Shown piece by piece: positions 4,265 through 23,131 of a stretch of DNA of 64,000 bases (position 1 is the first letter of the stretch; each line of letters starts with the position of its first letter). The notes under the pieces are model-generated. The model was not told where the DNA came from and did no database searches. It saw only the letters and a program-made list of their open reading frames with translations. Source of the stretch: Chitinophaga pinensis (GTDB lineage: Bacteria; Bacteroidota; Bacteroidia; B-17B0; Aurantibacillaceae); NCBI GenBank assembly GCA_943369995.1, contig CALRPF020000013.1, positions 36,422-100,421 on the forward strand, given 5' to 3'. Both the position numbers and the translations under genes were made by a program.

Positions 4265-6205
4265 TCACTTAAGAAATTCAACTATCAATTCCTTGTCTTT
4301 ACGCCGTGTAGTATGAAACGTATTTTCGTTTGGAGAAATAACCAAATTTTCTTTAAACGGGGTTGTAATACGATATTTATTTTTACCGGCTTGTGTCAGA
4401 ATAAATTCTTCATAGATACTATAACTGTCTTTTTCAAAAACAATAATACCGCCAAACTCTTCTTTTGCAGTTGCTATTTTGCCGTTTAACGCGCTGAGTT
4501 GCGAGCGACCATCTTCAAAAGTTGTTATAATAATTTTACTTCCTTCATTACCATCAACCATTAATTTGCCCTCAGCTGAGATCCTGATAAACTTATTACC
4601 CTCTGTTTTCAGTATAACAGTATCAGAAGAAAGTGTCTTGGCTCTTGATGATGTGAATTTATAAATAGATGTATCCTTTAAAATATAATCGGGTAGTTGC
4701 CCGGTATTCAATATCGCAATCTTATAGTTTTTAACTTTCGCAAGGTTTATTTCAAATCTTGATGGAATTAAACTATAACCTATATAATCTGTATAGAACA
4801 TAAGTTTTATATAATCAAATTCAGGGCAATTAAAAACCACCAGTTGTTCGTTCTTAAATTCTTTTGTAAGTGCATTACAGGTATTGTACCAATTAATGTT
4901 TTGATTGCGTATAAATTGCATATAGCCGTCCGTCTTCTTCCATACGGTATGTTTTTCCTGAAAAGCTTCAAGTTTACAAAAATTAATACTACAATAAATC
5001 ACTAAAACAACAAAAAGCATTTGCTTTATTTTATTCTTTGCAATTTTTAAATACTCGTATATAATTTCGCCAATAGCCCCAAAGCCTAAAAAGAAAACAA
5101 AAAACACGAAGAAAGTAAAGCCGGGCATTTTTGTAGCTACATAGGTAAAAAATGCGTACACTATTACAACAGCAAACAAAAAGCAAATAAACAATTTTTT
5201 GTCACTAACATATTTATACAGTAAAATTAAACCAGGTATAATAAAAAAGTAAGCCAAATAACCTATTGTATTGGCAAGGCTCTCAAAATAGAAAAAAGCA
5301 TCACCACTATGTGCGTCTAAGGCAATATTAATATGTGCAACATTAAAAGCATGCTCCTGGGCAGCCTCTAATGGGAAACGACTAAATATGTAGATCTGCC
5401 AGGCAGCGGGAAGTATAAGCGCGACACAAAATGCTTTGAATAAATTAAACCAATCGCGCCGATAATTTTTAAAAGTATTTTTTTGCTGAATTAAAAACAT
5501 AAACCAAATTCCAAATACGATATAACCCGGCAGCCACTTTGTAAGAACAGCAAAGGAACTAAATAATGCAATAAGCAACATCCATTTTACCGATGCTCTT
5601 TCTTTTAGATATTCGCTATAAGCCCAAATACTCGCAACTATATAACACATAAAAATAATATCGTTATGATCGGTAGGCTGCGAGCCGACCATAAACTCAT
5701 TAAAAAAATAATTAAGGCTAAAAAACAATGCTCCTATAAAACCTATTCTTTTAGTAAATACATTATCTCCGATCTTATAAACGCAAAAAGTAGCAAACGT
5801 AAAACATATGGCACTTGGCAAACGAATTGCAAATGCCGTAGCGCCTAATAATTTAACAGAAAGCGCCATTTGCATTAAGAAAAACGGCTGCTTGTGCAAC
5901 CAAATATAATTCTTATCCCAATTTATATAATTATATGGCAAAATAGTATCGCGATATAGTTTGGGAGAAAACAGGTCGGCTGACATGTTTTTTGCTACGA
6001 GCGCATGGAATTGTTCATCCCAAAGATTGATAAATTCATCGGCAGTAATTACAAAAATTTTAAAACAAAGAGTACCTAGAAGTAAAAAAAAAAGTGCCAG
6101 TGATTTTTTACTATTGAACTCAAATATTAAAACAGAAGAAAAATAAAATAACAAAGAAACGACAATTAATATTTGCTGATAAGGTAAAAAATAACTGTCG
6201 AACAT
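4265..6205 (-). CDS. ArnT/PMT (GT39/GT83-like) glycosyltransferase with C-terminal beta-trefoil-like domain
   Basis: LWDEQFH acidic loop, HKQPFF, AIRLPSA, LTKW motifs; multiple TMs; fascin-like repeats in the last about 120 aa. Confidence 0.8.
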   Translation of the reverse strand: MFDSYFLPYQQILIVVSLLFYFSSVLIFEFNSKKSLALFFLLLGTLCFKIFVITADEFINLWDEQFHALVAKNMSADLFSPKLYRDTILPYNYINWDKNYIWLHKQPFFLMQMALSVKLLGATAFAIRLPSAICFTFATFCVYKIGDNVFTKRIGFIGALFFSLNYFFNEFMVGSQPTDHNDIIFMCYIVASIWAYSEYLKERASVKWMLLIALFSSFAVLTKWLPGYIVFGIWFMFLIQQKNTFKNYRRDWFNLFKAFCVALILPAAWQIYIFSRFPLEAAQEHAFNVAHINIALDAHSGDAFFYFESLANTIGYLAYFFIIPGLILLYKYVSDKKLFICFLFAVVIVYAFFTYVATKMPGFTFFVFFVFFLGFGAIGEIIYEYLKIAKNKIKQMLFVVLVIYCSINFCKLEAFQEKHTVWKKTDGYMQFIRNQNINWYNTCNALTKEFKNEQLVVFNCPEFDYIKLMFYTDYIGYSLIPSRFEINLAKVKNYKIAILNTGQLPDYILKDTSIYKFTSSRAKTLSSDTVILKTEGNKFIRISAEGKLMVDGNEGSKIIITTFEDGRSQLSALNGKIATAKEEFGGIIVFEKDSYSIYEEFILTQAGKNKYRITTPFKENLVISPNENTFHTTRRKDKELIVEFLK

Positions 6206-6232
6206 TAAATAGGATCTTTAAGGCTGAATAAT

Positions 6233-6889
6233 TTACACCTGCATTTCAGGTATATCGCCTTCTATAATTAACTTACCGGCGGTTGCATTTTTTATCTCAT
6301 CAATACTTATTCCAGGCGCACGTTCCAATAATTTGAATCCTCCTTGTGGAGCTATTTCATAAACACCTAACTCAGTAACTACTTTTTTTACGCATCTAAC
6401 GCCAGTTAAAGGCAATTCACATTTCGGTAAAAATTTTGATTGGCCTGCTTTATTTACCTGTTGCATGGCAACAATAATATTTTTTGCACTTGCTACAAGA
6501 TCCATTGCTCCGCCCATACCTTTAACCATTTTTCCGGGAATCTTCCAGTTAGCTATATCACCATTCTCGCTAACTTCCATCGCGCCAAGAATTGTAAGGT
6601 TTACTTTCTGCGAACGTATCATTCCAAAACTCATGGCACTATCAAAAATACTTGAGCCTTTAAGTAAGGTTATTGTTTGTTTACCTGCGTTAATAAGATC
6701 AGCGTTTTCTTCACCTTCATAGGGAAAAGGACCCATACCGAGAATACCATTTTCCGACTGAAGAACAACATTTACACCTTCAGGAATATAATTTGCAACC
6801 AAAGTAGGAATCCCAATTCCAAGATTTACAAACATACCATCCTTTACTTCCTTTGCTATTCTTTTGGCTATACCGTTTTTATCTAACAT
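6233..6889 (-). CDS. scoB: 3-oxoacid CoA-transferase subunit B
   Basis: VNLGIGIPT, LQSENG (catalytic Glu), NAGK, GMGGAMDL. Confidence 0.95.
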   Translation of the reverse strand: MLDKNGIAKRIAKEVKDGMFVNLGIGIPTLVANYIPEGVNVVLQSENGILGMGPFPYEGEENADLINAGKQTITLLKGSSIFDSAMSFGMIRSQKVNLTILGAMEVSENGDIANWKIPGKMVKGMGGAMDLVASAKNIIVAMQQVNKAGQSKFLPKCELPLTGVRCVKKVVTELGVYEIAPQGGFKLLERAPGISIDEIKNATAGKLIIEGDIPEMQV

Positions 6890-6890
6890 A

Positions 6891-7934
6891 TCAATATGCG
6901 TTTTTATATTCTTTTGAAAATTGTTTATTTAATGCTTTAGCTACGTTTTTTGCTATGATCATTCTTCCTTTATAACCATAATGTTCAGTTGTCCAGTTCT
7001 GATCGGTAAATTCTTTTCCATTAACCAACTCTAGATTATCAACAACAACACAATTGTTTTTAGTGTATCGTTTTATCAAATAATCTCTGTTTTGTTTCAT
7101 TAAAAATACTAATTCTTTGCCAACTAAACTATCTGCATATTCAATATTTTCGGCCATTAAATTTAAATACAAATTCACTTTATTTTTATTGCACCAATGG
7201 GCTATTTCGTCAAAATCCTTTATCCGCGGGTTATCCTCACGAATATTAAACGCATACCCTTTTATGTAGTGGCAAGCGAGCGTAATTTTTTCATGATCCC
7301 AGCTTCCATCAGCTTTTACGTAAGTACCTTGCGCCATACCATTATCCCATTCTCTTACGGTTTTATATTTAAACGGGAAAGGAAAAACAAGCGGTTTTGT
7401 TTCCCATTCTTTAAGCATTTCGGCTTCTCTTTGTTGCTCTGTTTTATTATCAAAGGCCTGTAAAGAAAGAAAGAAACGGTTAATTATATTTGGGTAGGGT
7501 TGTGCCAGAACTATAGATTCTTGTAATTGTGTTTCAAGGCGCGAATGTATCCAGGCAGCGTCAAACGAACGCATATTTAAAGTAACAATAATAGCCTTTG
7601 GCTTTTTTTCACTTACATCAATTTGCTTTACCCACTCTTTATAAATACCGGCATGCGTTGCAGGCTTATTGATGGTGGTTAAAGTAAGTGTTGGATAAAA
7701 GAACGCGGTAATTTCGGAAATAGTATTTTTAATTGAATCAGTTTCTCTTACGTTAAAGTTTGACGATTCTCCAAAATAAAAAATATCGGTCTCTTTTTGT
7801 TTTGCCCTTACCTCAACGATCTGTTCACATTTCTCATTAAGATCGCGTTTATATAAAGTAAAATTATAAATAAGATCCAGGCCAATAATTATTACTATCA
7901 GCATACATATCTTTATTATAATTTTTTTTGCCAT
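6891..7934 (-). CDS. DltD-like / SGNH-like membrane-anchored acyltransferase
   Basis: Start revised to the ATG at 7934 (TAATG overlap with the MBOAT stop); N-terminal anchor MAKKIIIKICMLIVIIIGL; block I-like YFGESS; C-terminal TTEHYGYKG resembles DltD DxxHLGxxG. Confidence 0.6.
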   Translation of the reverse strand: MAKKIIIKICMLIVIIIGLDLIYNFTLYKRDLNEKCEQIVEVRAKQKETDIFYFGESSNFNVRETDSIKNTISEITAFFYPTLTLTTINKPATHAGIYKEWVKQIDVSEKKPKAIIVTLNMRSFDAAWIHSRLETQLQESIVLAQPYPNIINRFFLSLQAFDNKTEQQREAEMLKEWETKPLVFPFPFKYKTVREWDNGMAQGTYVKADGSWDHEKITLACHYIKGYAFNIREDNPRIKDFDEIAHWCNKNKVNLYLNLMAENIEYADSLVGKELVFLMKQNRDYLIKRYTKNNCVVVDNLELVNGKEFTDQNWTTEHYGYKGRMIIAKNVAKALNKQFSKEYKNAY

Positions 7935-9340
7935 TAAAACTGAAAATAAATAAACGTAAATTTTTGAGTTCCTGATAAAGCCATTAAACAAAATAATAAT
8001 ACCGTATAAAAAGCCCACCTGTAAGGTGTTTTGAGGGTATTTAATTTAGAATCGAAACGCGAATTGTATAAAAAAATATCAAAAATTATAATTAAAACCG
8101 CAAATATTACTGGCATTAAAATATCAAGCTCAGCGAATTGCAAAGAATTATTCCTCAAAATAGCTTTGATCATATCCTTTGCTTTCTGAAAATTTTCGGC
8201 CCTGAAAAATATCCAGATAAACGACGTAATAACAAATGTTTTTAATACAAGAAGCGCATTTAGTAAACTCCATTCTTTTTTTATTTCGAATTTAAAGATC
8301 ATTGAAAAATAACGTTCCAATAAAAGCATTATGCCATGCAGCGCGCCCCAAACAACAAAGGTCCAGCTGGCACCATGCCATAGGCCGCTTACCATAAAAA
8401 CAATTAAAATATTAATACTCCACCTCGGAATTTTTACACGGTTACCTCCCAAAGGAATATATAAATAATCTCTAAACCAGGTGCTAAGCGAAATATGCCA
8501 TCTGCCCCAAAATTCAGATACACTTTTTGCCAGATAAGGCGTTTTAAAATTATTCATGATATTAATTCCCATTAACCTTGCGCAGCCTAAAGCAATGGTT
8601 GAATAGCCAAAAAAATCGGCATAAATCTGGAAAGAAAATAAAAAGACAGATAATAAAACTTCGTAAGAATTATATTTTAATGGCTCGGCGTAGATTTGGT
8701 TAACATACGGAGCAATGTTATCGGCCACGGCCATTTTTATAAATAAACCAAACAGGATCAATTTAAAACCATCCGAAAAATTTTGGTATAATGGTTTATG
8801 TGCTTCTTTCAATTCATTACCAAGCGTTTCGTAACGCTCAATGGGGCCAGCTACCATTTGCGGAAAGAACAGTACATAATTTGCAAAATACCCCAAATGC
8901 GTTTCGGCTTTCTGCCTGCCGCGGTATACTTCAATAGTATAGCTCATGGATTGAAATGTATGAAAAGAAAGTCCGATAGGCAAAATAATATTAAGGTTAA
9001 GCGGATGAAATTCTTTTCCGAACAAAGAAAATGCCGAAACCAGGTTTTCGTTGAAAAAATTAAAATATTTAAAAAAGGCCAATAGGCCAATATTTGCAGT
9101 TAAGCTGGCTACCAGGTAAAATAATTTTAGCCTACCCTCTACCCTTTCAATAGTTAGAGCCGCGATATAATCAACTACAATAATTAAAAAAAGTATAAGA
9201 ATATACTTCGGTACAAATACCATATAAAAATAACAGCTCGAAATAAAAATGAGCATCCACCTGAATTTTTGTGGCAATAAATAATATAACCCAATTACAA
9301 TTGGAAGAAAAAATAAAAAATGTAATGAATTAAATAACAT
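7934..9340 (-). CDS. MBOAT family O-acyltransferase (AlgI/DltB/PatA-like)
   Basis: MLFNS start, LPIGLSFHTFQSMSY, FFPQMVAGPIER, DFFGYS, FWGRWHISLSTWFRDYLYIPLGG, SGLWHGA (catalytic His). Confidence 0.95.
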   Translation of the reverse strand: MLFNSLHFLFFLPIVIGLYYLLPQKFRWMLIFISSCYFYMVFVPKYILILFLIIVVDYIAALTIERVEGRLKLFYLVASLTANIGLLAFFKYFNFFNENLVSAFSLFGKEFHPLNLNIILPIGLSFHTFQSMSYTIEVYRGRQKAETHLGYFANYVLFFPQMVAGPIERYETLGNELKEAHKPLYQNFSDGFKLILFGLFIKMAVADNIAPYVNQIYAEPLKYNSYEVLLSVFLFSFQIYADFFGYSTIALGCARLMGINIMNNFKTPYLAKSVSEFWGRWHISLSTWFRDYLYIPLGGNRVKIPRWSINILIVFMVSGLWHGASWTFVVWGALHGIMLLLERYFSMIFKFEIKKEWSLLNALLVLKTFVITSFIWIFFRAENFQKAKDMIKAILRNNSLQFAELDILMPVIFAVLIIIFDIFLYNSRFDSKLNTLKTPYRWAFYTVLLFCLMALSGTQKFTFIYFQF

Positions 9341-10975
9341 TTATTGCAACTCTTTACGTTTATATACTTCTACATGTTCTTTTTTAAGTAAAAAAGAAAA
9401 ATTATCTGTTATTACCTTAAAAGAAGCTTCGTTTTTTAAGGTAGGGTTATTTACAACAACATACTTAATATCCTTTTCTATAACACTTTTAACAAGAACA
9501 GAATCTGCAAATCGTTGTGCCGACAGAGTAAGTCCTTTTTGGTCCATTAAATAAAGTGTAATATCAAAGCTTTCGTCCGGCACGCTCAAAACCTTATCAT
9601 TTCTTGTAATACCAGCCTCTCTGAGATCTGGCGTAATGGTTTCGAGAGGTTTTGTTGAATTGCCGTAAGACCATCTTAAAAAGGCCGCGTAGTCTTTTTC
9701 TTCTTTAGACAAAAAAGGGTACCAACTACACATACTATCGTTTTTTATTGTTCTTAACCGAAAAAAAGCAGCAGAATAAAATGAATTAAAAATAACAACT
9801 ATAATTACGAAGGCTGTAAAGAATTTAGTGTTGCCAATTATTTGAAATTCATTATTAAAAACGATATGCGCAATACTTAAACAGGTAATAACGGGCAGTA
9901 TCATTAAATTATTTAAATAATAATCGTGAACGGTAAACACTTGAAAAAAGAACAATATATAAAATACAAAAAATAATGTAGCAAACACAAAAGAATATTT
10001 CAAAAAACTATTTAACTTTTTGAGATTAGCGTATACAAAAATAACCGCAGATAAAAACAAAAAGAACATTGGCTTATTTAAGAATACAGGGAAAAGAATA
10101 TTGAACAGCGACTGAAAATTAGAAAGAACAGCTTCTTCCTGCATTTCCCAAATAGGTAATACCGTTAAAAGAAAAACACCATTTGAACTGTCTCCATTAT
10201 AATAAACGGCATATTTATACCAGCAAATTATCAATAGTATTGACAGAATAATGAAAGATACCGGTAATATTTTTTTTGTGAATAATTTTTCGGTTTTAAA
10301 AAATGTGTTCAAATTAAAAAAATCAATTACCGAAAAAAATAATAGAAGCGCAAAAGGCATAACTGCGCTGGCCTTAATAAGAACAGCTAACATGGAAACA
10401 AATAAGCACCAATAAAAATATTTTAAGGAGCGCGTGTCATAAAAAGAATACAGAAAACAAAATCCAATTATGGCTAACGATAACGCGGGTACATCGGCAA
10501 TAAAGTTAAAACCATAATAAACAAGCATTGGCGATGTAAGAAAAAAGCTCACACAAAAGAATGAAAACAAAAGTGAGGCCCTGGTTCTTAAGAGTGAATT
10601 AAAAAGAAAGAACATGGCCAGTACAAACATAAAATATTCAAGCAGCTTATAAATAAATTCGTGTTCGCCAAAAATTGTCCACAAACAGGCAACGGTATAA
10701 TTCAGAATTGGAAATTCACTTACAGCACTTCCATCCTTATTTGCCTGGAAATGAATTTTTGGTTGAAAAAAATGCATTCCTTCTTCATAATAGTTCTTTG
10801 TAATAGATAAACAATCGCTTTGACGCCATTGATGTATTATTGAGGGCCTGTTTTTTAATGCCAGGTTATAGGCATTTACAAAAAACAAAAGTATAATAAA
10901 ACAAAGCAGAAATAAATTCGCGCTAAGTTTTGTTTTACCACTAAATATTTTTTTAAAAGAAATTTCTTTTGTCAT
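9341..10975 (-). CDS. ArnT-like GT-C-fold glycosyltransferase
   Basis: HQWRQSDCLS first-loop motif, EFPILNY, DVPALS, VLIK; about 12 TMs. Confidence 0.7.
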   Translation of the reverse strand: MTKEISFKKIFSGKTKLSANLFLLCFIILLFFVNAYNLALKNRPSIIHQWRQSDCLSITKNYYEEGMHFFQPKIHFQANKDGSAVSEFPILNYTVACLWTIFGEHEFIYKLLEYFMFVLAMFFLFNSLLRTRASLLFSFFCVSFFLTSPMLVYYGFNFIADVPALSLAIIGFCFLYSFYDTRSLKYFYWCLFVSMLAVLIKASAVMPFALLLFFSVIDFFNLNTFFKTEKLFTKKILPVSFIILSILLIICWYKYAVYYNGDSSNGVFLLTVLPIWEMQEEAVLSNFQSLFNILFPVFLNKPMFFLFLSAVIFVYANLKKLNSFLKYSFVFATLFFVFYILFFFQVFTVHDYYLNNLMILPVITCLSIAHIVFNNEFQIIGNTKFFTAFVIIVVIFNSFYSAAFFRLRTIKNDSMCSWYPFLSKEEKDYAAFLRWSYGNSTKPLETITPDLREAGITRNDKVLSVPDESFDITLYLMDQKGLTLSAQRFADSVLVKSVIEKDIKYVVVNNPTLKNEASFKVITDNFSFLLKKEHVEVYKRKELQ

Positions 10976-11045
10976 TTTTAATATTCAGTTGTACCAATTG
11001 GGATATAAATTTTTATTGATTGAAATTAGAAGAGATCAAACTATT

Positions 11046-11756
11046 TTATTTCTTTCTCACTGTTCTTTGTTCGATGCGTTTTTCGTATTTCTGTCCCTGA
11101 AAGATCCGGTGAACATAAATACCTGGTGTGTGAATGTGGTCAGGATCTAATTCGCCTGCAGGCACAAGCTCTTCTACTTCAGCAATTGTAATTCTGCCGG
11201 CCATTGCCATTAAAGGATTAAAATTACGGGCAGTGCTGTTATAAATTAAATTTCCGGCCGTATCGCCTTTCCATGCTTTTACAATAGCAAAGTCAGCTTC
11301 AAAAGCTTTCTCCATTAAATATTCTTTTTCTTCACCATTAAAAGTAAACTTACGTGTTTCTTTTCCAATGGCCACTTCGGTGCCAACCCCAGCCGGCGTA
11401 AAAATAACAGGCATACCATAACCGGCAGCCATACATCTTGTAGCAAGTGTGCCTTGAGGTACTAATTCAACCTCTAACTCACCGCTTAACATCTGGCGTT
11501 CGAATTCATCATTCTCTCCAACGTAACTTGAGATCATTTTTTTGATCTGTTTTGTTTGAAGCAATAAGCCTAAACCAAAATCATCTACACCGGCATTATT
11601 ACTAATACAGGTTAAATTCTTAACACCTTTTTTTACCAATTCCGCAATACAGTTCTCAGGAATGCCACATAAGCCAAAACCACCCACCATTAAGGTATTG
11701 CCATCTTTAATATCTTTTAATGCTTCTTCAACATTTTTTACTACTCGATTAATCAT
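11046..11756 (-). CDS. scoA: 3-oxoacid CoA-transferase subunit A
   Basis: [44 protein letters not shown]. Confidence 0.95.
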
Positions 11757-13389
11757 TTTTTTGGCGTTTTTTACGTTCGTTTACAAATATAGAAATTTTA
11801 TCTTTTGTGTAAGGTAAATAGCGCTGAAATTCATACTCCCTTACCAGTTTAAAGTCCTTTGGTTTGTCGTATTGAATAACGTAATCATAAGCGTAAAGAT
11901 CAAGAAAATAATACCATATGCTTCTGTTTCCTTCGTGCCACCCGTTTACCTCCATTCCACCATTGATCTTATGGTATTCTACACCAACTTTATCCTTCAA
12001 AAAGGCATAAGCTTCCCAACGCTTTCTATTTAATTCAAGATAATCTTTTGTGCCAAATACAGAAATATAAACAAACAGTAAAAGCGGCAAAATGGCAAGC
12101 CGGTAATTTGTTTTATAGTTTAGATTTGCATAAGCAAATACTATTAAAGCAAGCGTTATTAAAGGGATATGATACCTGTCGTAATAACTTTCGGTTATAA
12201 GTATCATAAAAATATAGGCTAAAAATAAAGTTGCAATAAAAATTACTTTAGGGTTTTTATTGAACGGATTGATTCTTTGCTTTATCAGTTTAAACACAAA
12301 TAAAACAAAACAAATAAGAGATCCTGAAGTGAATAAATACTTTATTACAACACCTATTTTATCTGCAGTTTCTGAATAATTATGCTCATGTTCGCCTTTG
12401 TAATCCCTGTTCATATCCTGAACAAAAGTTTCTGCTCCAATAAAAAGATTTGAAAAAGTATTTCCTATCGGAAAACGCTCTTCTCTTAAAATAAAATATA
12501 TTGCTGCTGAACAAATTAACGTTGTTAAAACAATTACATATCCTTTAAACTCTTTTAAAAGGCCGGATATATATATAACTGCAAAAGGAAACAAATAAAG
12601 TAAAACATGAAGAATGATAGTTGAAGATCTTGTTTTTAAATTCAGGAAAAGTCTGTCGAAAAATATAGATGGCGATAAATGGTCTCCAGAAAATTTGTAA
12701 GCAGAATCAGGAAGAAGAATGCCTTTAAGATAATGCTCATAATACTTAAATACCACAATTATGATAGCAAAGAATGCAATGGACAAGCCAACGTACAACC
12801 ATCTTTTTTGATCTAAAAACAAACAGCAGAACGTAAAACATGCCGGCACAATAATACCGTATTGCCTTAGCAAAACAATAAGCATTGACAGGATAAATAC
12901 GGCAATAAAGGATAAATAACTTCGTGACCTAAAAAATTCGAAAGCAAAATAACAACTTACAATAATGAGTGTATTGAAGTTGACATCTGTCATGAAAGTA
13001 TTGCATAGCCCAAAATAAATCGGGTTAAAAAGAAATACCAGACAAAGAATAAAAGCGGTAAGTCTATTGTTTGTAATATCTATTACAATTTTATTTAATG
13101 TAAGAACAGATATTAAAGCAGATATAAGTGTAGAGAAGCGAAGAACAGTAAAAGAAAAACCAAAGATTTTGGTAAACAATGCACCCCATATAATTTGCGT
13201 GTACAAGGTCATTGCAGGAAAATCGCCTATATTAATAATATTATCTTTTTGATAAATTAATACAGATTTTCCATACGTCCAGTCGTCATTTAAAGGAAAG
13301 TTACCGATGGGATTGACTATAATTTCACTAATGATGAAGATCATCATTAAAATTACGATCAGTTTATTTTTTTCAACAAAAGATTTCAT
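11749..13389 (-). CDS. GT-C-fold glycosyltransferase-like membrane protein (paralogue of 15765-17387)
   Basis: FPLNDDW acidic loop, MTDV, RQYG; many TMs; stop overlaps the scoA start by 8 nt. Confidence 0.7.
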
Positions 13390-13414
13390 TTTACAGGGTT
13401 TATAATTTTACCTG

Positions 13415-15673: not shown

Positions 15674-15764
15674 TTTGAAAGGGTAAAAATAACAAAAACC
15701 CTTAATGTAAAAAGTGAAATAAACTAAAAATAGTAACAATATTGCGCCTTAACGAGAAGCAACA

Positions 15765-17387
15765 CTAATTACTGGCTGTTTTTGCAGTATCTACCCTCAT
15801 AAGCAGCCTTAAAGTATCTTTTTTATATGGAAAATAGCGCTGGAATTCATATTCACGAAGCGTTTTAAAACCACTCTCTTTATTAAACTGGATAAGGTAA
15901 TCGTAGTTTTGAAGATTGCCGTAATCTGCCCACCAATTATTTTTTCCATCGTTCCAGCAATTCACCTCAAAGCCACCATTAATTTTCTCCGCATTAACTT
16001 TCGCTTTGTCCTTAATAAAATAATAAGCGTCCCATCTGTTTCGATTAAGGGCAAGATAATCCTTTGTTCCGAAAACCGATAAATAAAAAAAACAGAACAA
16101 GATCACTATGCTTATACTATAACTGGCTTTAAAAGTTTTATTCATAAACGAAAATAAAATAAAGATTAAAGCAATTATTGGTAAATGATACCTATCAAAA
16201 TACACATCTTTTTGTGTAATAAGTATCATAAAAATATACATACCCAATAACAAAACTAAAAATAAAGCCACTGGATCTAATTTAAATGCTTTTTTACCTG
16301 ATTTAATTTTGGACGATAAAAAAAGTATAAGTACAATAAAAGTGAACGACGAAAAAACATATTTTATAATATCGCAAAGTGCCGCAAAATCAGTGGATCT
16401 TGTATGGCCATTACTTTCGTGAAATGTTTCAGGCCCGATACACATGTTTGTAAACATATTATGAAAAGGGAAGATGTTACCCTGCAACAAAAAATAACAA
16501 CCAAAAATACATACTATAGAAACCCCAAAAGCATAAATTTTATTGACTGACCTGATAATTGAAGCGAGATAAATAATTGCTAAAGGAAAACCATATATAA
16601 GAATGTGTACTAAAATTACTTTGTACCGCCCGGCTATATTTACAAAAAAATTCTCCCAAAAAGCGTAACTCAAAAGATCAATTGATCCTGAAAAAGTATA
16701 AGCTGCACCATAGGATAAAGAATGCTTAAGAATACTTTCATAACATTTCAATACTCCAAGAGTTATTACAATAACTATAAACGAGATAATTAAATATCTT
16801 TTCTTTTTTTCTTTTAAAGCAATACAAGAGAGGAAAAAACAAATTGGTAAAACAATTCCAAACTGACGAATTAATACAAGACCAATAGATAATAATAAAA
16901 AATAATATATATATATTTCTTTTTTTGTGTCAAAAAAAACAAAAGCACAATAACAACTTAAGATTAACAGTGTAGTGAAATTTACATCTGTCATATATGT
17001 ATTTGTAAGGCTAAAGTACAATGGATTAAACAATAACACTAAACATGAAAAAAAGCCAAGCCCCGGATTATTGCTGATCTTAACAACAAGTTTATTTAGA
17101 AAAAACAGGCCAATGAGCGATGAAATAAGCGTAGAAAATCTTAAGACGGTAAATGAGAAACCGAAGATCTTTGTAAAAATTGTTCCCCACAATAAATGAG
17201 TAAAAAGCGTCATGGCTCCAAAATCACCGATCGTATAAACACCATTGATGGCAAATGATACCGATTTTGAATAAGCCCAATCATCATTTAAAGGAAATTC
17301 GCCAATTGGATTTACGATAATTTCACAAATAATGAATATTAAAATCAGAAATAAAAAATGTTTATGTTTTATTGCAAAAGATCTCAT
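15765..17387 (-). CDS. GT-C-fold glycosyltransferase-like membrane protein (paralogue of 11749-13389)
   Basis: FPLNDDW, MTDV, RQFG; shares the identical 19-aa block [19 protein letters not shown] with its paralogue. Confidence 0.7.
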   Translation of the reverse strand: MRSFAIKHKHFLFLILIFIICEIIVNPIGEFPLNDDWAYSKSVSFAINGVYTIGDFGAMTLFTHLLWGTIFTKIFGFSFTVLRFSTLISSLIGLFFLNKLVVKISNNPGLGFFSCLVLLFNPLYFSLTNTYMTDVNFTTLLILSCYCAFVFFDTKKEIYIYYFLLLSIGLVLIRQFGIVLPICFFLSCIALKEKKKRYLIISFIVIVITLGVLKCYESILKHSLSYGAAYTFSGSIDLLSYAFWENFFVNIAGRYKVILVHILIYGFPLAIIYLASIIRSVNKIYAFGVSIVCIFGCYFLLQGNIFPFHNMFTNMCIGPETFHESNGHTRSTDFAALCDIIKYVFSSFTFIVLILFLSSKIKSGKKAFKLDPVALFLVLLLGMYIFMILITQKDVYFDRYHLPIIALIFILFSFMNKTFKASYSISIVILFCFFYLSVFGTKDYLALNRNRWDAYYFIKDKAKVNAEKINGGFEVNCWNDGKNNWWADYGNLQNYDYLIQFNKESGFKTLREYEFQRYFPYKKDTLRLLMRVDTAKTASN

Positions 17388-17501
17388 GAATTAATTTATA
17401 GTCTTTATATTTTAAATACTTTAAACGTACGCAATTGCAATATATTTTCAATATTTTAAATTAAATGCTAAAATAGCAAATAAAGTGCTGCAATATAGAC
17501 C

Positions 17502-18809
17502 CTACCTTAAAATTAGAAGGCGATTAGCGTCTAGCTTTATAAAAATAAATAGAAGAATAGTGAATGACCAAAGTGATGAACCTCCGTAACTAAAGAAAGG
17601 TAAAGGAATGCCAATAACGGGCATTAAACCAATGGTCATACCAATATTCACTGCAAGGTGAAAAAATAATACACAAGCTACTCCATAACCGTATATCCTG
17701 CTAAAATCAGAACGTTGCCTTTCTGATAAAAATATAAGCCGGAGTATTAAAAATAGTTCTAAAAAAATAACCACCGTGCTGCCAACAAAACCCCACTCCT
17801 CGCCTACTGTACAAAAAATAAAATCAGTATCCTGTTCCGGCACAAAATCGTATTTGGTTTGCGTACCCTGCAAATAACCTTTACCAAAAAAGCCACCGCT
17901 ACCAATAGCGATCTTTGCCTGATTTACATTATATCCTTCTTTTTTAAGATCTACCGTTCCTCGTCCTAACAATACATCTATCCTTACTTTTTGATGCTCT
18001 TCTAAATGATTGTAAACATAATTTGTTCCAAGTACAACTCCTGCGGCAAGCACGTAAGCTACAATAACTCCAATTAAATTTGCCCTGCTGCGTTTAATGA
18101 ATAAAAAAGCCGATGATGCAATTACGGCGAGCGTTATTAGCAAGCCACTAATGCTTGTTACAATTAATGCTACTACAAATAAAATTGCCGCTAAAATTCC
18201 AAAAATTAAAAATCCTACACTTAAACCTTCGCGATACAAAACAATAATAAATGCTATAAACACAATGGCAAGCCCCGTTTCATTCTGCAATTTGATAATT
18301 AAAATTAACGGCACGATAATAAATAATAAAGCAATAAATGTGTTCTTGTAATTTTTTATTAGATCCTTTAAACGCAACCGAAATTGTTGGTTAACAACAA
18401 TATTCTGGTTACTTAAAAATTTTGCGAGCGCCAAACTGGTTGCAAATTTCATGAACTCGGCAGGCTGTATACCTGCACTACCAAATCTAAACCACGAGTG
18501 ACTACCTTTTATTTCTTTTCCTAAGAATAAAACCAAAATATTCATTAAAAGAAAAAAGCCATAAAAACCATAAGCAAAAGCAGTATAAAAATTGGCGTCT
18601 ATTAATAAGATACTAAACGCAATAACTGCGGCACCACCTATCCAGATAAGCTGTTTACCATACTTTTGCGTTGTATCAAAAATATTCTGATGCTCTTCAT
18701 CATAAACTGCAGCATAAATATTTAACCAACCCATAAAAACGAGCAGCACGTAGGTAATAAGCGTTAGCCTGTCTACCCCATAAAATATACTATTTTCGTT
18801 TCTTGCCAA
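17502..18809 (-). CDS. rodA: Rod shape-determining protein RodA (SEDS)
   Basis: QPAEFMK, GYNVNQAKIAIGSGG, PEQDTDFIF, GIPLPFFSYGGSS; TTG start. Confidence 0.95.
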   Translation of the reverse strand: MARNENSIFYGVDRLTLITYVLLVFMGWLNIYAAVYDEEHQNIFDTTQKYGKQLIWIGGAAVIAFSILLIDANFYTAFAYGFYGFFLLMNILVLFLGKEIKGSHSWFRFGSAGIQPAEFMKFATSLALAKFLSNQNIVVNQQFRLRLKDLIKNYKNTFIALLFIIVPLILIIKLQNETGLAIVFIAFIIVLYREGLSVGFLIFGILAAILFVVALIVTSISGLLITLAVIASSAFLFIKRSRANLIGVIVAYVLAAGVVLGTNYVYNHLEEHQKVRIDVLLGRGTVDLKKEGYNVNQAKIAIGSGGFFGKGYLQGTQTKYDFVPEQDTDFIFCTVGEEWGFVGSTVVIFLELFLILRLIFLSERQRSDFSRIYGYGVACVLFFHLAVNIGMTIGLMPVIGIPLPFFSYGGSSLWSFTILLFIFIKLDANRLLILR

Positions 18810-18812
18810 TTA

Positions 18813-20699
18813 TTAATTTTTTATAGGTCGTTTGATTTTTGCAGCGTCTTTTTTATTATTCTTTGTTATCAGATCACCCTCTAACATTCTTTTTTCAGTT
18901 TCAGGTCTTTCTGTTTTGCCTTTTAAATACTTTTCGATCATTAAAGTAACAATGGGTGCACTCCAGGTATTACCAAAACCGGCATTTTCAACAATACAGG
19001 CAATAGCAATTTTTGGATTATCGCGGGGCGCAAATGCCAAAAAAACAGCGTGATCATCGCCATGAGGATTTTGTGCAGTACCTGTTTTACCGCACACTAC
19101 TATATCTTTTAAACGGTTTGTAAACGCTGTGCCACCGGGCTCTAAGGCGCCCTGCATACCATCAATAACGTTTAAATAAGCGGTTTGGTCTTGTACACCT
19201 ACGTAATGCTTTTGTTTAAAGCGTTTGTCTAATTGTTTATCTATACCAACACCTTTTACGCTGTGAGGTGTGTAATAAAAGCCCCTGTTAGCAATGCTGG
19301 CCACTACATTCGCCATTTGTAGGGGCACCAGCGTTAACTCGGCCTGGCCAATACCTAATGAAACAATTGTATTACTGCGCCAACCGTTCTTTCCAAAAAC
19401 TTTATTATAATATTCAACCGATGGAACGTTGCCGGGTTTATCGTAAGGAAGGTCGGTTCCCAAACGTGTTCCGGGACCAAATGTTTTTACCATTTCACGC
19501 CAATGATTATAACCATCAATAAAATTAGGGTACTTCCGCTGATCTACAATTTCTCTGAAAACATATGCATAATAAGAATTGCAAGATGCTGCCACCGAAC
19601 CAGGTAAATTTTTTCCGCCTCCATGCGCGTGGCATTTTGGTTTACCGCCCATAGGCGGATACCCCATGGCGCAAGGATAAACAGTATTACGATTAATTAA
19701 ACCATCCTGTTGCGCTATTAAAGCATCTATTAACTTAAAGATAGAGCCCGGGGGATACATGGCTGTGAGTGCACGATTAAACAAAGGACGGTTGATACTA
19801 TCGTAATATAGTTTTGTGAAATTTTTAGAACGTTCTTTACCACCAACCAGTAAGTTTGGATCATATGCAGGTCCTGAAACCAAGCATAAGATCTCTCCTG
19901 TAGATGGTTCAATTGCAACAATGGCGCCTTTTTTTCCAGTCATTAATTTTTCGCCATACTCCTGCAAATCACGATCAATACTGCAATACAAAGGTTTACC
20001 CGCAATTGCCAATGTATCATACTTTCCATCCATGTAACGGCCAATTACTTTGTTGTGCACATCTGTAATAGCTATTTGTGTTCCTTTTTTTCCTCGCAAC
20101 GCTTCTTCGTAACTTCTTTCAAGGCCTGTGATACCAATGTAATCACCTTCTTTATAATAGAGATCTTTTTCGGCCTGCTCTTTACTTACCTCACCAACAT
20201 ACCCTAAAAGATGTGCTGCAATTGGCTTTGGGTATTTTCTTACAGTACGTTTCTGAACAAAAAAACCTTTAAAGCGATATGCTTTTTCCTGCAAGGCAGC
20301 GTAAGTTTGCGCCGACATTTGTTTTTCGAAAATACTTTCTTTACGCGGAGAATTGGGCGCCTGGCAAGCGCGTTTCATGCGTTTTAAATATTCTTGCCTG
20401 GTAATTTGTAACACTTCGCAAACACCCATCGTATCACAACCTTTAGTTTCGCGTGGAATGACCATAAGATCATAAGAAGGCGCGTTAAACACTAATAATT
20501 TTCCTTTGCGGTCGTAAATATATCCGCGCACCGGATATTCAGTCATGTAACGAAATGCATTCTTTTCCGCATCTAGTTTATACTGAATATCTATTACCTG
20601 AATGTAGAACAGGCGGCATAAATAAATTATAACCACCAGGCAAAAAAATCCACCTATAATCAATTTTCTATTGCCGAGTTGTTGCGAATTAATACTCAT
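18813..20699 (-). CDS. mrdA: Penicillin-binding protein 2
   Basis: RGYIYDR, RKYP, GITGLE, YPPGSIFK, SCN, GKTGTAQ. Confidence 0.95.
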   Translation of the reverse strand: MSINSQQLGNRKLIIGGFFCLVVIIYLCRLFYIQVIDIQYKLDAEKNAFRYMTEYPVRGYIYDRKGKLLVFNAPSYDLMVIPRETKGCDTMGVCEVLQITRQEYLKRMKRACQAPNSPRKESIFEKQMSAQTYAALQEKAYRFKGFFVQKRTVRKYPKPIAAHLLGYVGEVSKEQAEKDLYYKEGDYIGITGLERSYEEALRGKKGTQIAITDVHNKVIGRYMDGKYDTLAIAGKPLYCSIDRDLQEYGEKLMTGKKGAIVAIEPSTGEILCLVSGPAYDPNLLVGGKERSKNFTKLYYDSINRPLFNRALTAMYPPGSIFKLIDALIAQQDGLINRNTVYPCAMGYPPMGGKPKCHAHGGGKNLPGSVAASCNSYYAYVFREIVDQRKYPNFIDGYNHWREMVKTFGPGTRLGTDLPYDKPGNVPSVEYYNKVFGKNGWRSNTIVSLGIGQAELTLVPLQMANVVASIANRGFYYTPHSVKGVGIDKQLDKRFKQKHYVGVQDQTAYLNVIDGMQGALEPGGTAFTNRLKDIVVCGKTGTAQNPHGDDHAVFLAFAPRDNPKIAIACIVENAGFGNTWSAPIVTLMIEKYLKGKTERPETEKRMLEGDLITKNNKKDAAKIKRPIKN

Positions 20700-21214
20700 G
20701 ACCTTTTACGGTTTGTAAAAAATAAGAACTGGATAAGATAAACCAAACCAAAAGTACCGATGCTGCTTAACACGGCTCTGAAAAAAGTTCTGAAGAATTC
20801 TGAGAAACGAAATACTTCAATAAAGAAAAAATAAAAATGATGAATAACAACTAATGTACCGGCATAACTTAAAAACCAGGCAAGGCCCATATCTGTTACC
20901 GTTGGCTGAACACCAACATCGTAACCATCGCGTGGTGAAATAAATTTTAAAACATAATATCTGCTAAAACCCATTAATGTACAGGCCGATGCATGAAGAC
21001 CAGATGAATCGAAAAAATAATCGATACAAATACCTAAGAAAAAAGAAATAATTAAAACGGTAACACGCGATAATTCAAATGGCAATAAAATAATTACCAA
21101 AACATAGGGCAATAAAATAATGTAACTGGACAGGTTAATGTTTTGAATGATTAACACCTGAACCAATATCAGTAATATAAAGCGGAAAATATTTTTAGCT
21201 ATCTCAGTCGTCAA
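20696..21214 (-). CDS. mreD: Rod shape-determining protein MreD
   Basis: 172-aa hydrophobic protein between mreC and mrdA; ATGA overlap with mrdA. Confidence 0.88.
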   Translation of the reverse strand: MTTEIAKNIFRFILLILVQVLIIQNINLSSYIILLPYVLVIILLPFELSRVTVLIISFFLGICIDYFFDSSGLHASACTLMGFSRYYVLKFISPRDGYDVGVQPTVTDMGLAWFLSYAGTLVVIHHFYFFFIEVFRFSEFFRTFFRAVLSSIGTFGLVYLIQFLFFTNRKRS

Positions 21215-22043
21215 CTTGTTTTTGTGCTAGGTTTTCTAATGAATCTCTTTCGGTTTTAAATTTATTCTTGATCACGTAAACGTGATTTACTTTTTTAAGA
21301 TCGGCGCTTAACTTTACTCTTACGGTATAAAAACTTTCGTTCTGCCTGCGCTCAAAGCTTTCTACAAAACCAACCATGATGCCTTCGGGAAAAATACCTG
21401 AGAGCTCGCTGGTAATTACCGTATCACCGGCTTTAACTTTAGCATGTGTTGGAATATCTGTAAGCAAACAATAACGATAATCTTTTCCATCCCAAATTAA
21501 AGGACCATAACTTCCATCTTTTTTTAACTGACAATTTACCCGAATATCTTTATGCAAAATACTCATTGCACTTGCAAAGTTGGTAGACGCGTTTGTAACA
21601 ATACCAACTATACCTTCGCTGCTCATCACTGCCATGTCTTGCCCAATACCTTGGTTAGCGCCAACGTTAAGCGTTAAAAAATTACGGCGTTTATTTACTG
21701 ATGAGTTAACTACTTTTGCGCTCATAAAAGAATACTGTTGTTTATACAATGTATCGTTCTTTTTAAATTCCCGTAAAGGCAAAATAGAATAATTTGATTT
21801 TAAAAAATTTCTTAATACTGAATTTTCTAAAGCGAGTTTATCGTTCTCTTGTTTTAAGGCAAAATAATCTTTTGTATTTGCAGCCGCAGTATAAATGCCA
21901 GCTACAACCTGGTTAGATGAATTTAAAACCTGCGAACCCTGGTAGCCATTATCCTGCACCATAAACCAAACACTTATCATTTGCAGAAACAAAAAAATAA
22001 ATATAAAATGGTGTTTTACTACAAAGGCAAGTAAGTTTCTCAC
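21204..22043 (-). CDS. mreC: Rod shape-determining protein MreC
   Basis: N-terminal TM, coiled coil, AKVVNSS, GIVG, GDTVITS, FPEGI. Confidence 0.93.
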   Translation of the reverse strand: MRNLLAFVVKHHFIFIFLFLQMISVWFMVQDNGYQGSQVLNSSNQVVAGIYTAAANTKDYFALKQENDKLALENSVLRNFLKSNYSILPLREFKKNDTLYKQQYSFMSAKVVNSSVNKRRNFLTLNVGANQGIGQDMAVMSSEGIVGIVTNASTNFASAMSILHKDIRVNCQLKKDGSYGPLIWDGKDYRYCLLTDIPTHAKVKAGDTVITSELSGIFPEGIMVGFVESFERRQNESFYTVRVKLSADLKKVNHVYVIKNKFKTERDSLENLAQKQVDD

Positions 22044-22108
22044 GTGTTAAATTATTAGCGAGTGAAACAAATGTGTCACTATATAAAGCTACGATGCGCT
22101 TATGCTGT

Positions 22109-23131
22109 TTACTTGATTAAGAACGGGAATTTATGAACATTTTTAAGTGCAATTCCGGTACCACGCGCAACAGCGCGAAGAGGATCTTCGCAAACGTGAA
22201 CCGGTAATTTTGTTTTCATGGAGATACGCTTATCCAAACCTCTCAATAATGAACCACCACCGGCCATAAAAATTCCTTTACGGTAAATATCTGCAGCTAA
22301 CTCTGGAGGCGTCATCTCCAATGCGTTTAAGATCGCTTCTTCAATTTTAGAAATTGATTTATCTAAACAATGTGCTATCTCAACATAACTGATATAAACT
22401 TCTTTAGGAATACCGCTCATTAAGTCGCGCCCTTGTACAGCAAAGTCTGCGGGAGGATTATCGATCTCAGTCATAGCGGCGCCCACTTCAATTTTTACTC
22501 TTTCTGCACTACGCTCACCAATTAAAATATTGTGCTGACGACGCATATACTCTTCAATATTCGCGTTAAAATCGTCACCCGCAATACGTGTTGATTTATC
22601 ACACACAATGCCACCTAATGCAATTACGGCAATTTCGGAAGTACCACCACCAATATCAATAATCATATTTCCCATTGGCTCTTCCACATCAATACCCATA
22701 CCAATAGCTGCGGCCATGGGTTCGTGGATCATGTATACTTCTTTTGCACCTGCATGTTCTGCACTATCTCGAACCGCACGTTTCTCTACCTCTGTAATAC
22801 CACTGGGAATGCAGATTACCATACGCAATGATGGCTTAAAAAAACGATTTCCAGGATTGATCATTTTAATCATTCCTTTAATCATTTCTTCTGCAGCCTG
22901 GAAATCGGCAATAACTCCATCCTTTAAGGGGCGGATTGTTTTTATGTTCTCATGTGTTTTACCATGCATCATTTGTGCCTGGCGTCCTACAGCTATTACT
23001 CTGCCCGTAGTTCTGTCAACCGCAACTATACTGGGTTCATCAACTACAACTTTATCGTTATGAATAATAATTGTATTTGCAGTTCCTAAGTCAATTGCAA
23101 TATCCTGGGTTAAAAAGTCAAATAAAGCCAT
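22109..23131 (-). CDS. mreB: Actin-like protein MreB
   Basis: IDLGTAN, IRPLKDGVIAD, EPMAAAIG, DIGGGTSE, AGGGSLL. Confidence 0.98.
   Translation of the reverse strand: MALFDFLTQDIAIDLGTANTIIIHNDKVVVDEPSIVAVDRTTGRVIAVGRQAQMMHGKTHENIKTIRPLKDGVIADFQAAEEMIKGMIKMINPGNRFFKPSLRMVICIPSGITEVEKRAVRDSAEHAGAKEVYMIHEPMAAAIGMGIDVEEPMGNMIIDIGGGTSEIAVIALGGIVCDKSTRIAGDDFNANIEEYMRRQHNILIGERSAERVKIEVGAAMTEIDNPPADFAVQGRDLMSGIPKEVYISYVEIAHCLDKSISKIEEAILNALEMTPPELAADIYRKGIFMAGGGSLLRGLDKRISMKTKLPVHVCEDPLRAVARGTGIALKNVHKFPFLIK

Follow-up and report, generated by a model that had tools for sequence, protein, structure and literature searches.

The 64,000-nt stretch of DNA analysed here (the window; part of contig CALRPF020000013.1 of assembly GCA_943369995.1, Chitinophaga pinensis) carries on its minus strand, at positions 4265-23131, 14 co-directional open reading frames (ORFs) without interruption, in which genes of the elongasome, a class A penicillin-binding protein (PBP1A) and the two subunits of a 3-oxoacid coenzyme A (CoA) transferase (scoA, scoB) alternate with accessory genes for glycosyltransferases and acyltransferases of the envelope. 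The run may best be read as a mosaic of an ancestral mreBCD-mrdA-rodA operon and a separate PBP1A-scoA-scoB string, with accessory glycan-tailoring genes lodged in the junctions of this backbone, where they would have been inserted, duplicated, swapped and deleted between species. We put at about 0.55 the probability that these accessory genes serve to glycosylate and O-acylate a variable envelope glycan in the periplasm and are expressed from the housekeeping operons in which they sit.

The gene order is mreB-mreC-mreD-mrdA-rodA-GTC1-PBP1A-GTC2-scoA-GTC3-MBOAT-SGNH-scoB-GTC4, with GTC1 to GTC4 denoting GT-C glycosyltransferases. The extent, strand and co-directionality of the run, as described in an earlier note on this DNA, agree with the ORF list of the window and with the family matches, and the alternation of accessory with core genes reported there is confirmed by the gene order. 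Family matches (Pfam, NCBIfam) and structural models uphold 13 of the 14 identities, the exception being mreD with its weak match. The genes of the run, in the direction of transcription, and a convergent gene next to it are as follows.

22109-23131, minus strand: mreB, 340 aa (PF06723, E 2.4e-128)
21204-22043, minus strand: mreC, 279 aa (PF04085, E 9e-41)
20696-21214, minus strand: mreD, 172 aa (TIGR03426, E 9e-4, below cut-off)
18813-20699, minus strand: mrdA, encoding PBP2, 628 aa (PBP_dimer and Transpeptidase domains)
17502-18809, minus strand: rodA, 435 aa (PF01098, FTSW_RODA_SPOVE, E 1.4e-72), closing the elongasome operon
15765-17387, minus strand: GTC1, PMT_2/GT39-like GT-C enzyme, 540 aa (PMT_2, 34.7 bits), in the rodA/PBP1A slot
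13415-15739, minus strand: class A PBP of the PBP1A family, 774 aa (Transgly and Transpeptidase domains; TIGR02074, 485 bits)
11749-13389, minus strand: GTC2, paralogue of GTC1, 546 aa (PMT_2, 24.2 bits), in the PBP1A/scoA slot, overlapping scoA by 8 nt
11046-11756, minus strand: scoA, 3-oxoacid CoA-transferase subunit A, 236 aa (TIGR02429, 261 bits against a cut-off of 128.5)
9341-10975, minus strand: GTC3, predicted GT-C fold with a C-terminal periplasmic alpha/beta domain, 544 aa (PMT_2, 18.5 bits)
7934-9340, minus strand: MBOAT acyltransferase, 468 aa (PF03062, E 6.8e-25; C-terminal FIYFQF)
6891-7934, minus strand: membrane-anchored SGNH partner ("DltD-like"), 347 aa (AlphaFold model, Foldseek)
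6233-6889, minus strand: scoB, 3-oxoacid CoA-transferase subunit B, 218 aa (TIGR02428, 310 bits against a cut-off of 243.6)
4265-6205, minus strand: GTC4, PMT_2 GT-C enzyme, 646 aa (PMT_2, 60.4 bits), in the slot downstream of scoB
2684-4261, plus strand: convergent polytopic membrane protein, 525 aa (no Pfam match; homologues all "hypothetical", some with PF19830)

The composite nature of the run is apparent from comparison with approx. 100 loci of relatives, consisting of 20-kb stretches around scoB from 20 relatives and of 80 loci with SGNH-partner homologues; all were annotated against the proteins of the window, and the 80 loci were found with a 12-sequence SGNH alignment. In other families of the class PBP1A, scoA and scoB are directly adjacent (L043, L044, L045 and L047; 4 of the 7 loci from other families whose flanking DNA is long enough), which indicates that the string is ancestral and that the scoA/scoB junction was originally intact. 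There is no obvious rationale for the linkage of a class A PBP with a 3-oxoacid CoA-transferase. The earlier note gave adjacency as the normal state of scoA and scoB, and this is what is found both in these families and in two members of the genus (L038, L039), which have no MBOAT-SGNH pair between the two genes. It is the window that departs from it: its subunit genes lie 4.1 kb apart, with GTC3, MBOAT and SGNH between them, and its scoB is the only copy in the genome.

The other part of the backbone, the mreBCD-mrdA-rodA operon, was rightly recognized in the earlier note as a conserved unit. Its five genes are co-directional and tightly packed, and their order is kept in genus relatives, with MreB 96-100% identical; the size of the weakly matching mreD and its conserved place between mreC and mrdA, which it overlaps by 11 and 4 nt, respectively, fit the assignment. 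This operon lies upstream of PBP1A in a subclade only. In 34 loci the upstream neighbour of PBP1A is a gene on the opposite strand (13 loci), some other same-strand gene (9), rodA itself (8) or a GTC1-type gene (4). Where rodA and PBP1A delimit a common junction (17 loci), this is empty in 8, filled by a GTC1-type gene in 3 and by a SprB-repeat protein of the type IX secretion system (T9SS) in 2, and occupied by opposite-strand genes in 4. The SprB-repeat protein, of 1200-1417 aa and with a T9SS C-terminal sorting domain, was seen in the rodA/PBP1A slot at L060:1900-5502, at L033:5758-9543 and in L068.

The contents of the junctions are far more variable than the backbone itself. Across relatives, the junctions rodA/PBP1A, PBP1A/scoA and scoA/MBOAT and the one downstream of scoB hold between 0 and 2 membrane transferases, belonging to at least 7 families. 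The PBP1A/scoA slot is empty in 21 of 36 loci and otherwise carries one or two genes from four families; the scoA/MBOAT slot is empty in 19 of 39 loci and otherwise carries GTC3, D507 together with GTC3, m500 together with GTC3, or D507. In one relative (L032) the GT-C genes in the same slots are 47-62% identical to those of the window, against 92-100% for the core genes. The closest relative (L031), with core genes 90-100% identical, has neither GTC2 nor GTC4. Alignment of its DNA with the window shows that it keeps the scoB-GTC4 spacer and approx. 125 nt of the 5' end of GTC4, which was therefore deleted there, and that GTC2 is missing and has left no scar. Many relatives carry, downstream of scoB, genes for a 175-aa protein, a GTC3-like protein, a 469-aa membrane protein, a GT2 glycosyltransferase (PF00535) and a DUF2304 protein. 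The first of these, a soluble protein of about 176 aa (ORFs of 175-185 aa, e.g. L054:11703-12230), is conserved, has no Pfam match and in relatives is always encoded ahead of the distant GTC3-like gene that lies 3' of scoB; the window does not have it.

The accessory enzymes are extracytoplasmic enzymes that modify the envelope, as is evident from the GT-C fold, the FxYxxF motif of the MBOAT and the membrane anchor of the SGNH partner, and this part of the inference in the earlier note stands. Two of the GT-C enzymes, GTC1 and GTC4, score above the PMT_2 cut-off of 26.1 bits, and GTC2 and GTC3 below it. GTC1, homologues of which are named "glycosyltransferase family 39 protein", is 45% identical to GTC2, and GTC3 and GTC4 come from other subfamilies. 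An acidic motif follows directly after the first transmembrane helix (TM1), as DD in GTC1 and GTC2 and as DE in GTC4, which bears an extra C-terminal domain of approx. 190 aa. GTC3, the one enzyme of the four for which the fold was modelled, has a predicted GT-C fold: its AlphaFold (AF2) model, built on 38 homologues, has a predicted local distance difference test score (pLDDT) of 91.1, and its best Foldseek match is ArnT (5ezm, E 2e-8, TM-score 0.52-0.54), followed by ALG12, STT3, AftD, PglB, AftA and Pmt4. Residue E87 is invariant in the GTC3 family, and hhalign connects this family to that of GTC1 and GTC2 with 96.6% probability. From the fold we infer that the donor of these enzymes is a polyprenyl-phosphate sugar.

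Judging from profile comparisons, the convergent 525-aa ORF probably encodes one more GT-C-like enzyme, the fifth in this variable neighbourhood. By hhalign its family is linked to the mem740 family (97.4%), and mem740 to the GTC3 family (97.3%); the families mem469 and mem633 are likewise linked to GT-C families. Its stop codon and that of GTC4 are 3 nt apart, which leaves no room for terminators between the two genes.

The genome of the window has 17 PMT_2 genes, and fairly complete genomes of the genus have 7-17. Four of the 17 matches fall within 19 kb of a 4.89-Mb genome, where about 0.07 would be expected by chance, so that the clustering is not random (Poisson P about 7e-7, a post hoc calculation). 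A further PMT_2 GT-C gene, in a 648-aa frame, lies outside the run at approx. 52947-53417 of the window (C13:89368-89838, minus strand). The accessory genes do not clearly stand out as foreign by their third-position GC content, which is 0.26-0.29 as against 0.26-0.33 in the core genes.

The rank of ArnT among the structural matches of GTC3 raises the question of lipid A or the core of lipopolysaccharide (LPS) as target. The GT-C enzymes would then act like ArnT or FlmK and use undecaprenyl-phosphate donors to place sugars or amino sugars on the core or on the phosphates of lipid A, and acylation of that glycolipid at the inner membrane would fall to the MBOAT-SGNH pair. Several homologues carry the label "4-amino-4-deoxy-L-arabinose transferase-like" of the Joint Genome Institute (JGI), and a membrane-anchored SGNH protein suits a lipid acceptor. 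Some relatives, moreover, add a polysaccharide deacetylase and a GNAT protein to the GT2-DUF2304 set beside their GT-C-like genes, and the combination of GT2 and deacetylase recalls the logic of ArnC and ArnD. The match to ArnT is one of fold only, however, at 9-12% identity, and no donor genes of the arnA or arnB type are present in the run. Up to 5 GT-C-like genes per locus and 7-17 per genome are more than the sites on lipid A and core would plausibly need, and extra periplasmic domains such as those of GTC3 and GTC4 are more typical of polysaccharide-binding GT-C enzymes (PMC11127046). Lipid A or core as the target is accordingly held to be quite unlikely.

Protein O-glycosylation would also agree with matches to PMT_2 and GT39. 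Under this explanation the PMT_2 enzymes would be Pmt-like or ligase-like components of the O-glycosylation system of Bacteroidota, and the O-acetyl groups of its glycans would come from the MBOAT-SGNH pair. For the Bacteroidota O-glycan, neither the oligosaccharyltransferase and the ligase nor the source of the O-acetyl groups has yet been identified (PMC12871550), which leaves room for such a role, and the species-specific outer part of this glycan agrees with the variability observed here. On the other hand, Pmt structures rank below ArnT, oligosaccharyltransferases and Aft proteins in the fold search. Nearly the whole phylum has the O-glycosylation system, but the SGNH family is rare and the GT-C content unconserved, so that the genes of the run do not encode its core transferase. 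That the accessory genes belong to this system is therefore improbable.

The second component of the accessory set, which would act on the same variable glycan, is the MBOAT-SGNH pair. The best NCBIfam match of the MBOAT is TIGR04091 (DltB), at 165 bits against a cut-off of 375. Its C-terminus (KFTFIYFQF) corresponds to the FxYxxF acyl-shuttle motif of PatA-type MBOATs, and FIYFQF or FIYFRF is found at the extreme C-terminus of all 88 MBOATs of the related loci (88/88) and of the 5 other paralogues of the genome. In PatA this motif carries the acetyl-tyrosine intermediate to PatB, and in the Dlt system it is borne by a separate microprotein, DltX (PMC12148441). Residues H282 (in RWHISL) and H322 are at least 97% conserved among 40 aligned members, and Y465 is conserved.

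The partner gene most likely starts at the ATG at position 7934, which overlaps the MBOAT stop codon (TAATG) and gives a protein of 347 rather than 375 aa; 347 aa is also the commonest length among its 882 homologues, which are without exception annotated as hypothetical. It has no match in Pfam or NCBIfam, and a comparison of its sequence with PDB chains gave nothing useful (Mex67, E 0.057). Its AlphaFold (AF2) model, built on 59 diverse homologues (pLDDT 96.7), consists of an N-terminal transmembrane helix (residues 2-26) followed by an alpha/beta domain, for which Foldseek returns DltD first (7dxm, 6pfx and 3bma, E about 1e-5) and then many SGNH esterases, with no PatB among the top 50 matches. 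The partner is thus, as modelled, a membrane-anchored SGNH protein closest in fold to DltD. Its invariant residues are E56-S57-S58 (block I, GESS), N120, D311, E317 and H318; the place normally taken by the Asp of the DxxH motif is occupied by Thr315, and D311 and E317 are invariant instead. Many homologues, mainly from Bacteroidales, are longer (approx. 490-500 aa), with an additional C-terminal part of approx. 150 aa that has no Pfam match (e.g. L115:9998-11461, L121:9989-11491; P0127, P0128 and P0135).

The two genes form a self-contained acyltransferase of the PatA/PatB type with a DltD-like partner. They are adjacent in all 80 loci examined (80/80), in settings diverse enough to mark them, by gene order, as a portable pair. 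In the clade of the window the pair sits between scoA and scoB, and in two loci (L105, L107) it lies just downstream of an intact scoA-scoB. In Crocinitomicaceae and Cryomorphaceae it is divergent from a GTC3-type gene and near ispG, a histidine kinase and a T9SS protease, and in Bacteroidales it stands beside genes for DUF6029, Omp28-like, TrmO and asparaginase proteins. The family of the SGNH partner is present in only 3 of 301 near-complete Bacteroidota genomes (3 of 143 genera). Within the sco clade, 17 of 39 loci have a GTC3-type gene next to the pair. The earlier note had said that insertion points varying among close relatives, with no co-occurrence, would speak against its inference. 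Variation is indeed found for the GT-C genes, in slot contents in general and in L031 and L032 in particular; lack of co-occurrence is not, since GTC3-type genes and the MBOAT-SGNH pair occur together in two independent contexts.

Six MBOATs are encoded in the genome of the window. The five others (C2:71222-73632, C26:58190-61922, C16:25126-27473, C5:216425-219180 and C2:285737-288517) each have a different neighbouring partner, and that at C2:71222-73632 forms a second MBOAT-SGNH pair, with a paralogue of the same SGNH family. The MBOAT on C26 is preceded by a GTC3-like gene, and one further paralogue has an AT3 acyltransferase directly after it.

The position of the pair between two subunit genes of one enzyme could point to metabolic coupling, in which ScoAB would make the acyl-CoA (e.g. 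acetoacetyl-CoA, succinyl-CoA or another short acyl-CoA) whose acyl group the MBOAT exports. The subunit genes enclose the cassette exactly, its junctions measuring 0, -1 and +1 nt, and this arrangement is kept across a deep clade; the cassette downstream of an intact scoA-scoB in L105 and L107 also adjoins the sco genes. ScoA and ScoB nevertheless score as ordinary SCOT subunits and are adjacent without any cassette in other families. There is no scoAB near the pair in Crocinitomicaceae, Cryomorphaceae and Bacteroidales, and the five other MBOAT paralogues share the motif and are not beside sco genes. Supply of the acyl group by ScoAB is, on this evidence, highly improbable.

A target in the cell wall has more in its favour. 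According to this explanation the MBOAT-SGNH pair would O-acetylate nascent N-acetylmuramic acid (MurNAc) or N-acetylglucosamine (GlcNAc) residues, as PatA/PatB do, and the GT-C enzymes would attach sugars to lipid II, to glycan strands as they form or to a polymer linked to the wall; co-transcription of all these genes with the elongasome and PBP1A would let modification keep step with synthesis. The accessory genes are tightly packed and co-directional with PBP1A, with gaps of at most 25 nt and overlaps, and the linkage PBP1A-scoA-(MBOAT-SGNH)-scoB persists down to approx. 47% SGNH identity (L098, L104-L109). The MBOAT has the shuttle motif of PatA, and a membrane-anchored SGNH protein fits a lipid-linked or nascent acceptor. 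Peptidoglycan of Bacteroides has been reported to be 56-66% O-acetylated (PMC11382707). The genome encodes no OatA-type fusion of AT3 and SGNH domains (its three AT3 proteins have 376-390 aa), which adds slightly to the same side.

Several observations argue against a wall target. The neighbours of the pair in other lineages are ispG, trmO, asparaginase and Omp28-type genes, not wall genes, and L038 and L039 keep scoA and scoB adjacent without the pair. With 3 of 301 genomes, the SGNH family does not represent the general peptidoglycan O-acetyltransferase of the phylum. The partner finds its best fold match in DltD, with PatB outside the top 50. GT-C content differs among near relatives, whereas peptidoglycan chemistry is conserved, and to our knowledge no GT-C glycosylation of peptidoglycan has been described in a diderm. 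Taken together, tailoring of peptidoglycan coupled to wall synthesis appears unlikely.

The link to the elongasome itself seems to lie in where the genes sit and not in how the enzymes work. The earlier note had taken co-expression with the elongation machinery to mean that the enzymes act on peptidoglycan or on another product of elongation, and the comparative data do not bear this out: the rodA/PBP1A junction of relatives is often empty and otherwise filled or interrupted by opposite-strand genes, and the MBOAT-SGNH pair occurs in other neighbourhoods as well that have nothing to do with the wall and is confined to so few genomes. Given these data, we consider very unlikely the wall-coupled form of the idea, in which lipid II, nascent peptidoglycan or an attached polymer would be decorated with sugars by the GT-C enzymes and with acyl groups by the MBOAT-SGNH pair while PBP1A and RodA-PBP2 synthesise it, in a manner differing by species and with acyl-CoA possibly supplied by ScoAB. 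If true, it would mean a "serotype-like" variable peptidoglycan or wall-linked glycan in diderm Bacteroidota.

The spacing of the genes is compatible with a run made of several units. From mreB/mreC to rodA/GTC1 the successive gaps are 65, -11, -4, 3 and 114 nt, and from GTC1/PBP1A to scoB/GTC4 they are 25, 25, -8, 70, 0, -1, 1 and 27 nt. The largest gap is thus that between rodA and GTC1 (114 nt), followed by scoA/GTC3 (70 nt) and mreB/mreC (65 nt). The 114-nt and 70-nt gaps, together with the gene orders of relatives, suggest at least two or three transcription units, and the run as a whole appears from its gene order to be two or three such units juxtaposed. As stated in the earlier note, there is no strong terminator inside it: no terminator-like hairpin lies between genes of the run, the sites on the coding strand all being inside genes, and the count on both strands (11) is below that expected from shuffled sequences (13.9). 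The 65-, 70- and 114-nt gaps fold no better than shuffled sequence. The absence of exact matches to the Bacteroidota promoter motif TAnnTTTG from the intergenic gaps of the run is uninformative, as is that of a consistent motif 3' of rodA among relatives. An AT-rich palindrome, TTTGCTATTTTAGCA, lies just 3' of the rodA stop codon (approx. 17462-17478 of the window, minus strand) and is seen again after rodA in at least 2 relatives (L068, L053); the hairpin that it could form is weak (about -5 kcal/mol) and not significant against shuffles.

From these elements we propose the following scheme for the modification of a variable envelope glycan. Each GT-C enzyme (GTC1 to GTC4 and probably the 525-aa protein) would take a sugar from a polyprenyl-phosphate carrier at the outer face of the inner membrane and add it to a lipid-linked or nascent glycan. 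The MBOAT would draw an acyl group, most likely acetyl from acetyl-CoA, across the membrane onto Tyr465 of its FIYFQF motif; the acyl group would then pass to Ser57/58 of the SGNH partner, which would O-acylate the same or a related glycan. This chemistry is proposed for the motif and fold found here by analogy with PatA/PatB and DltB/X/D. The most likely acceptor would be a surface glycan that varies between species, such as the O-antigen or core of LPS, the protein O-glycan of Bacteroidota or an exopolysaccharide; peptidoglycan is a less likely one. A variable surface glycan is favoured because fixed slots that diverge extremely while their flanks are conserved are the hallmark of such loci. 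Location in housekeeping operons would provide the cassettes with expression and with conserved flanks for recombination, and a shared pathway need not follow from it.

Some points weigh against this proposal. The linkage to PBP1A has long been retained, perhaps because co-expression with a peptidoglycan synthase is under selection. The identities of acceptor and donor rest on inference rather than on direct observation, and the argument from hypervariability is an analogy to serotype loci, which by itself does not prove surface exposure. GtrA (PF04138) and DUF2304 (PF10066) were undetected in the genome of the window, and the family search found no GT2 donor synthase among the genes of the run. 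Not all slot families are demonstrably glycosyltransferases either: Pfam gave no match for seven slot proteins, which belong to families C520, D507 and m500, and these families were not called GT-C because hhalign linked none of them to GT-C families.

The enzymes are of well-known types (PatA-type MBOAT-SGNH and GT-C) and do not by themselves constitute a new kind of system. What is new is the family of the SGNH partner, with its DltD-like fold, variant catalytic loop and lack of an existing model, the architecture of scattered slots, and the split between scoA and scoB. If the accessory genes do tailor a variable glycan, they add an uncharacterised family of DltD-like SGNH partners for PatA-type MBOATs in Bacteroidota, a clear case of periplasmic glycan-tailoring genes turning over at fixed junctions of housekeeping operons, and a conserved and unexplained linkage of PBP1A with scoA and scoB. 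They also provide candidates for the periplasmic steps of envelope glycan decoration in Bacteroidota, in a lineage that has a cultured member, Aurantibacillus circumpalustris, whose locus (L036) is laid out as PBP1A-GT-C-GT-C-scoA-GT-C-MBOAT-SGNH-scoB.

Among known systems, the two-gene unit of MBOAT and SGNH protein resembles PatA/PatB, AlgI/AlgJ/AlgX and DltB/DltX/DltD (PMC12148441). With PatA/PatB it shares the His residues of the MBOAT, the FxYxxF motif fused to the MBOAT as in PatA, and the block-I Ser and block-V His of the SGNH protein. It differs from PatA/PatB in its partner, which no model of Pfam or NCBIfam covers, which resembles DltD more than PatB in structure, and which has an N-terminal transmembrane anchor and carries Thr in the place of the DxxH Asp; no Ape-type esterase gene stands beside the pair, which is moreover rare in the phylum. 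With the Dlt system the pair has in common the nearest fold of its partner (DltD), the nearest family of its MBOAT (DltB) and the membrane anchorage of the partner. The score of the MBOAT nevertheless falls far short of the DltB cut-off, and the shuttle motif fused to it implies an acyl-CoA donor, unlike that of Dlt. A Dlt D-alanylation system was considered and rejected, as neither DltA nor DltC nor DltX is encoded among the 14 genes or the flanking genes. The host is a diderm and is not known to make teichoic acids.

The GT-C enzymes invite comparison with ArnT (GT83) and the protein O-mannosyltransferases (GT39), in view of their PMT_2 matches, of ArnT as best structure for GTC3 and of DD or DE after TM1. 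In contrast to those enzymes, the structural match goes with little sequence identity, two of the four GT-C proteins are below the PMT_2 cut-off, no arn or dpm genes are nearby, and 17 copies in one genome imply many acceptors or linkages. Gtr-type systems, including the GT136 pentofuranose systems, combine a flippase (GtrA), a polyprenyl-phosphate-sugar synthase (GtrB) and a serotype-specific GT-C enzyme (PMC11127046). The present locus is similar in its highly divergent GT-C proteins, which differ between close relatives and in part have extra periplasmic domains, and in relatives the same locus also has GT2 and a small DUF2304 membrane protein beside GT-C-like genes. Unlike Gtr-type genes, the four or five GT-C genes of the window have no GT2 or flippase gene alongside, and they are chromosomal and lie in housekeeping operons rather than on a prophage or in an O-antigen cluster.

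The architecture finds its closest counterpart in the variable glycan loci that are held between conserved flanks, such as the O-antigen locus between galF and gnd and the pneumococcal cps locus near pbp2x and pbp1a. Although the variable genes are here scattered over four or five junctions and encode periplasmic tailoring enzymes only, not a full polysaccharide pathway, the likeness extends to housekeeping flanks that include a PBP gene, to content that is replaced or lost, and to cassettes that are more divergent than the genes on either side of them.

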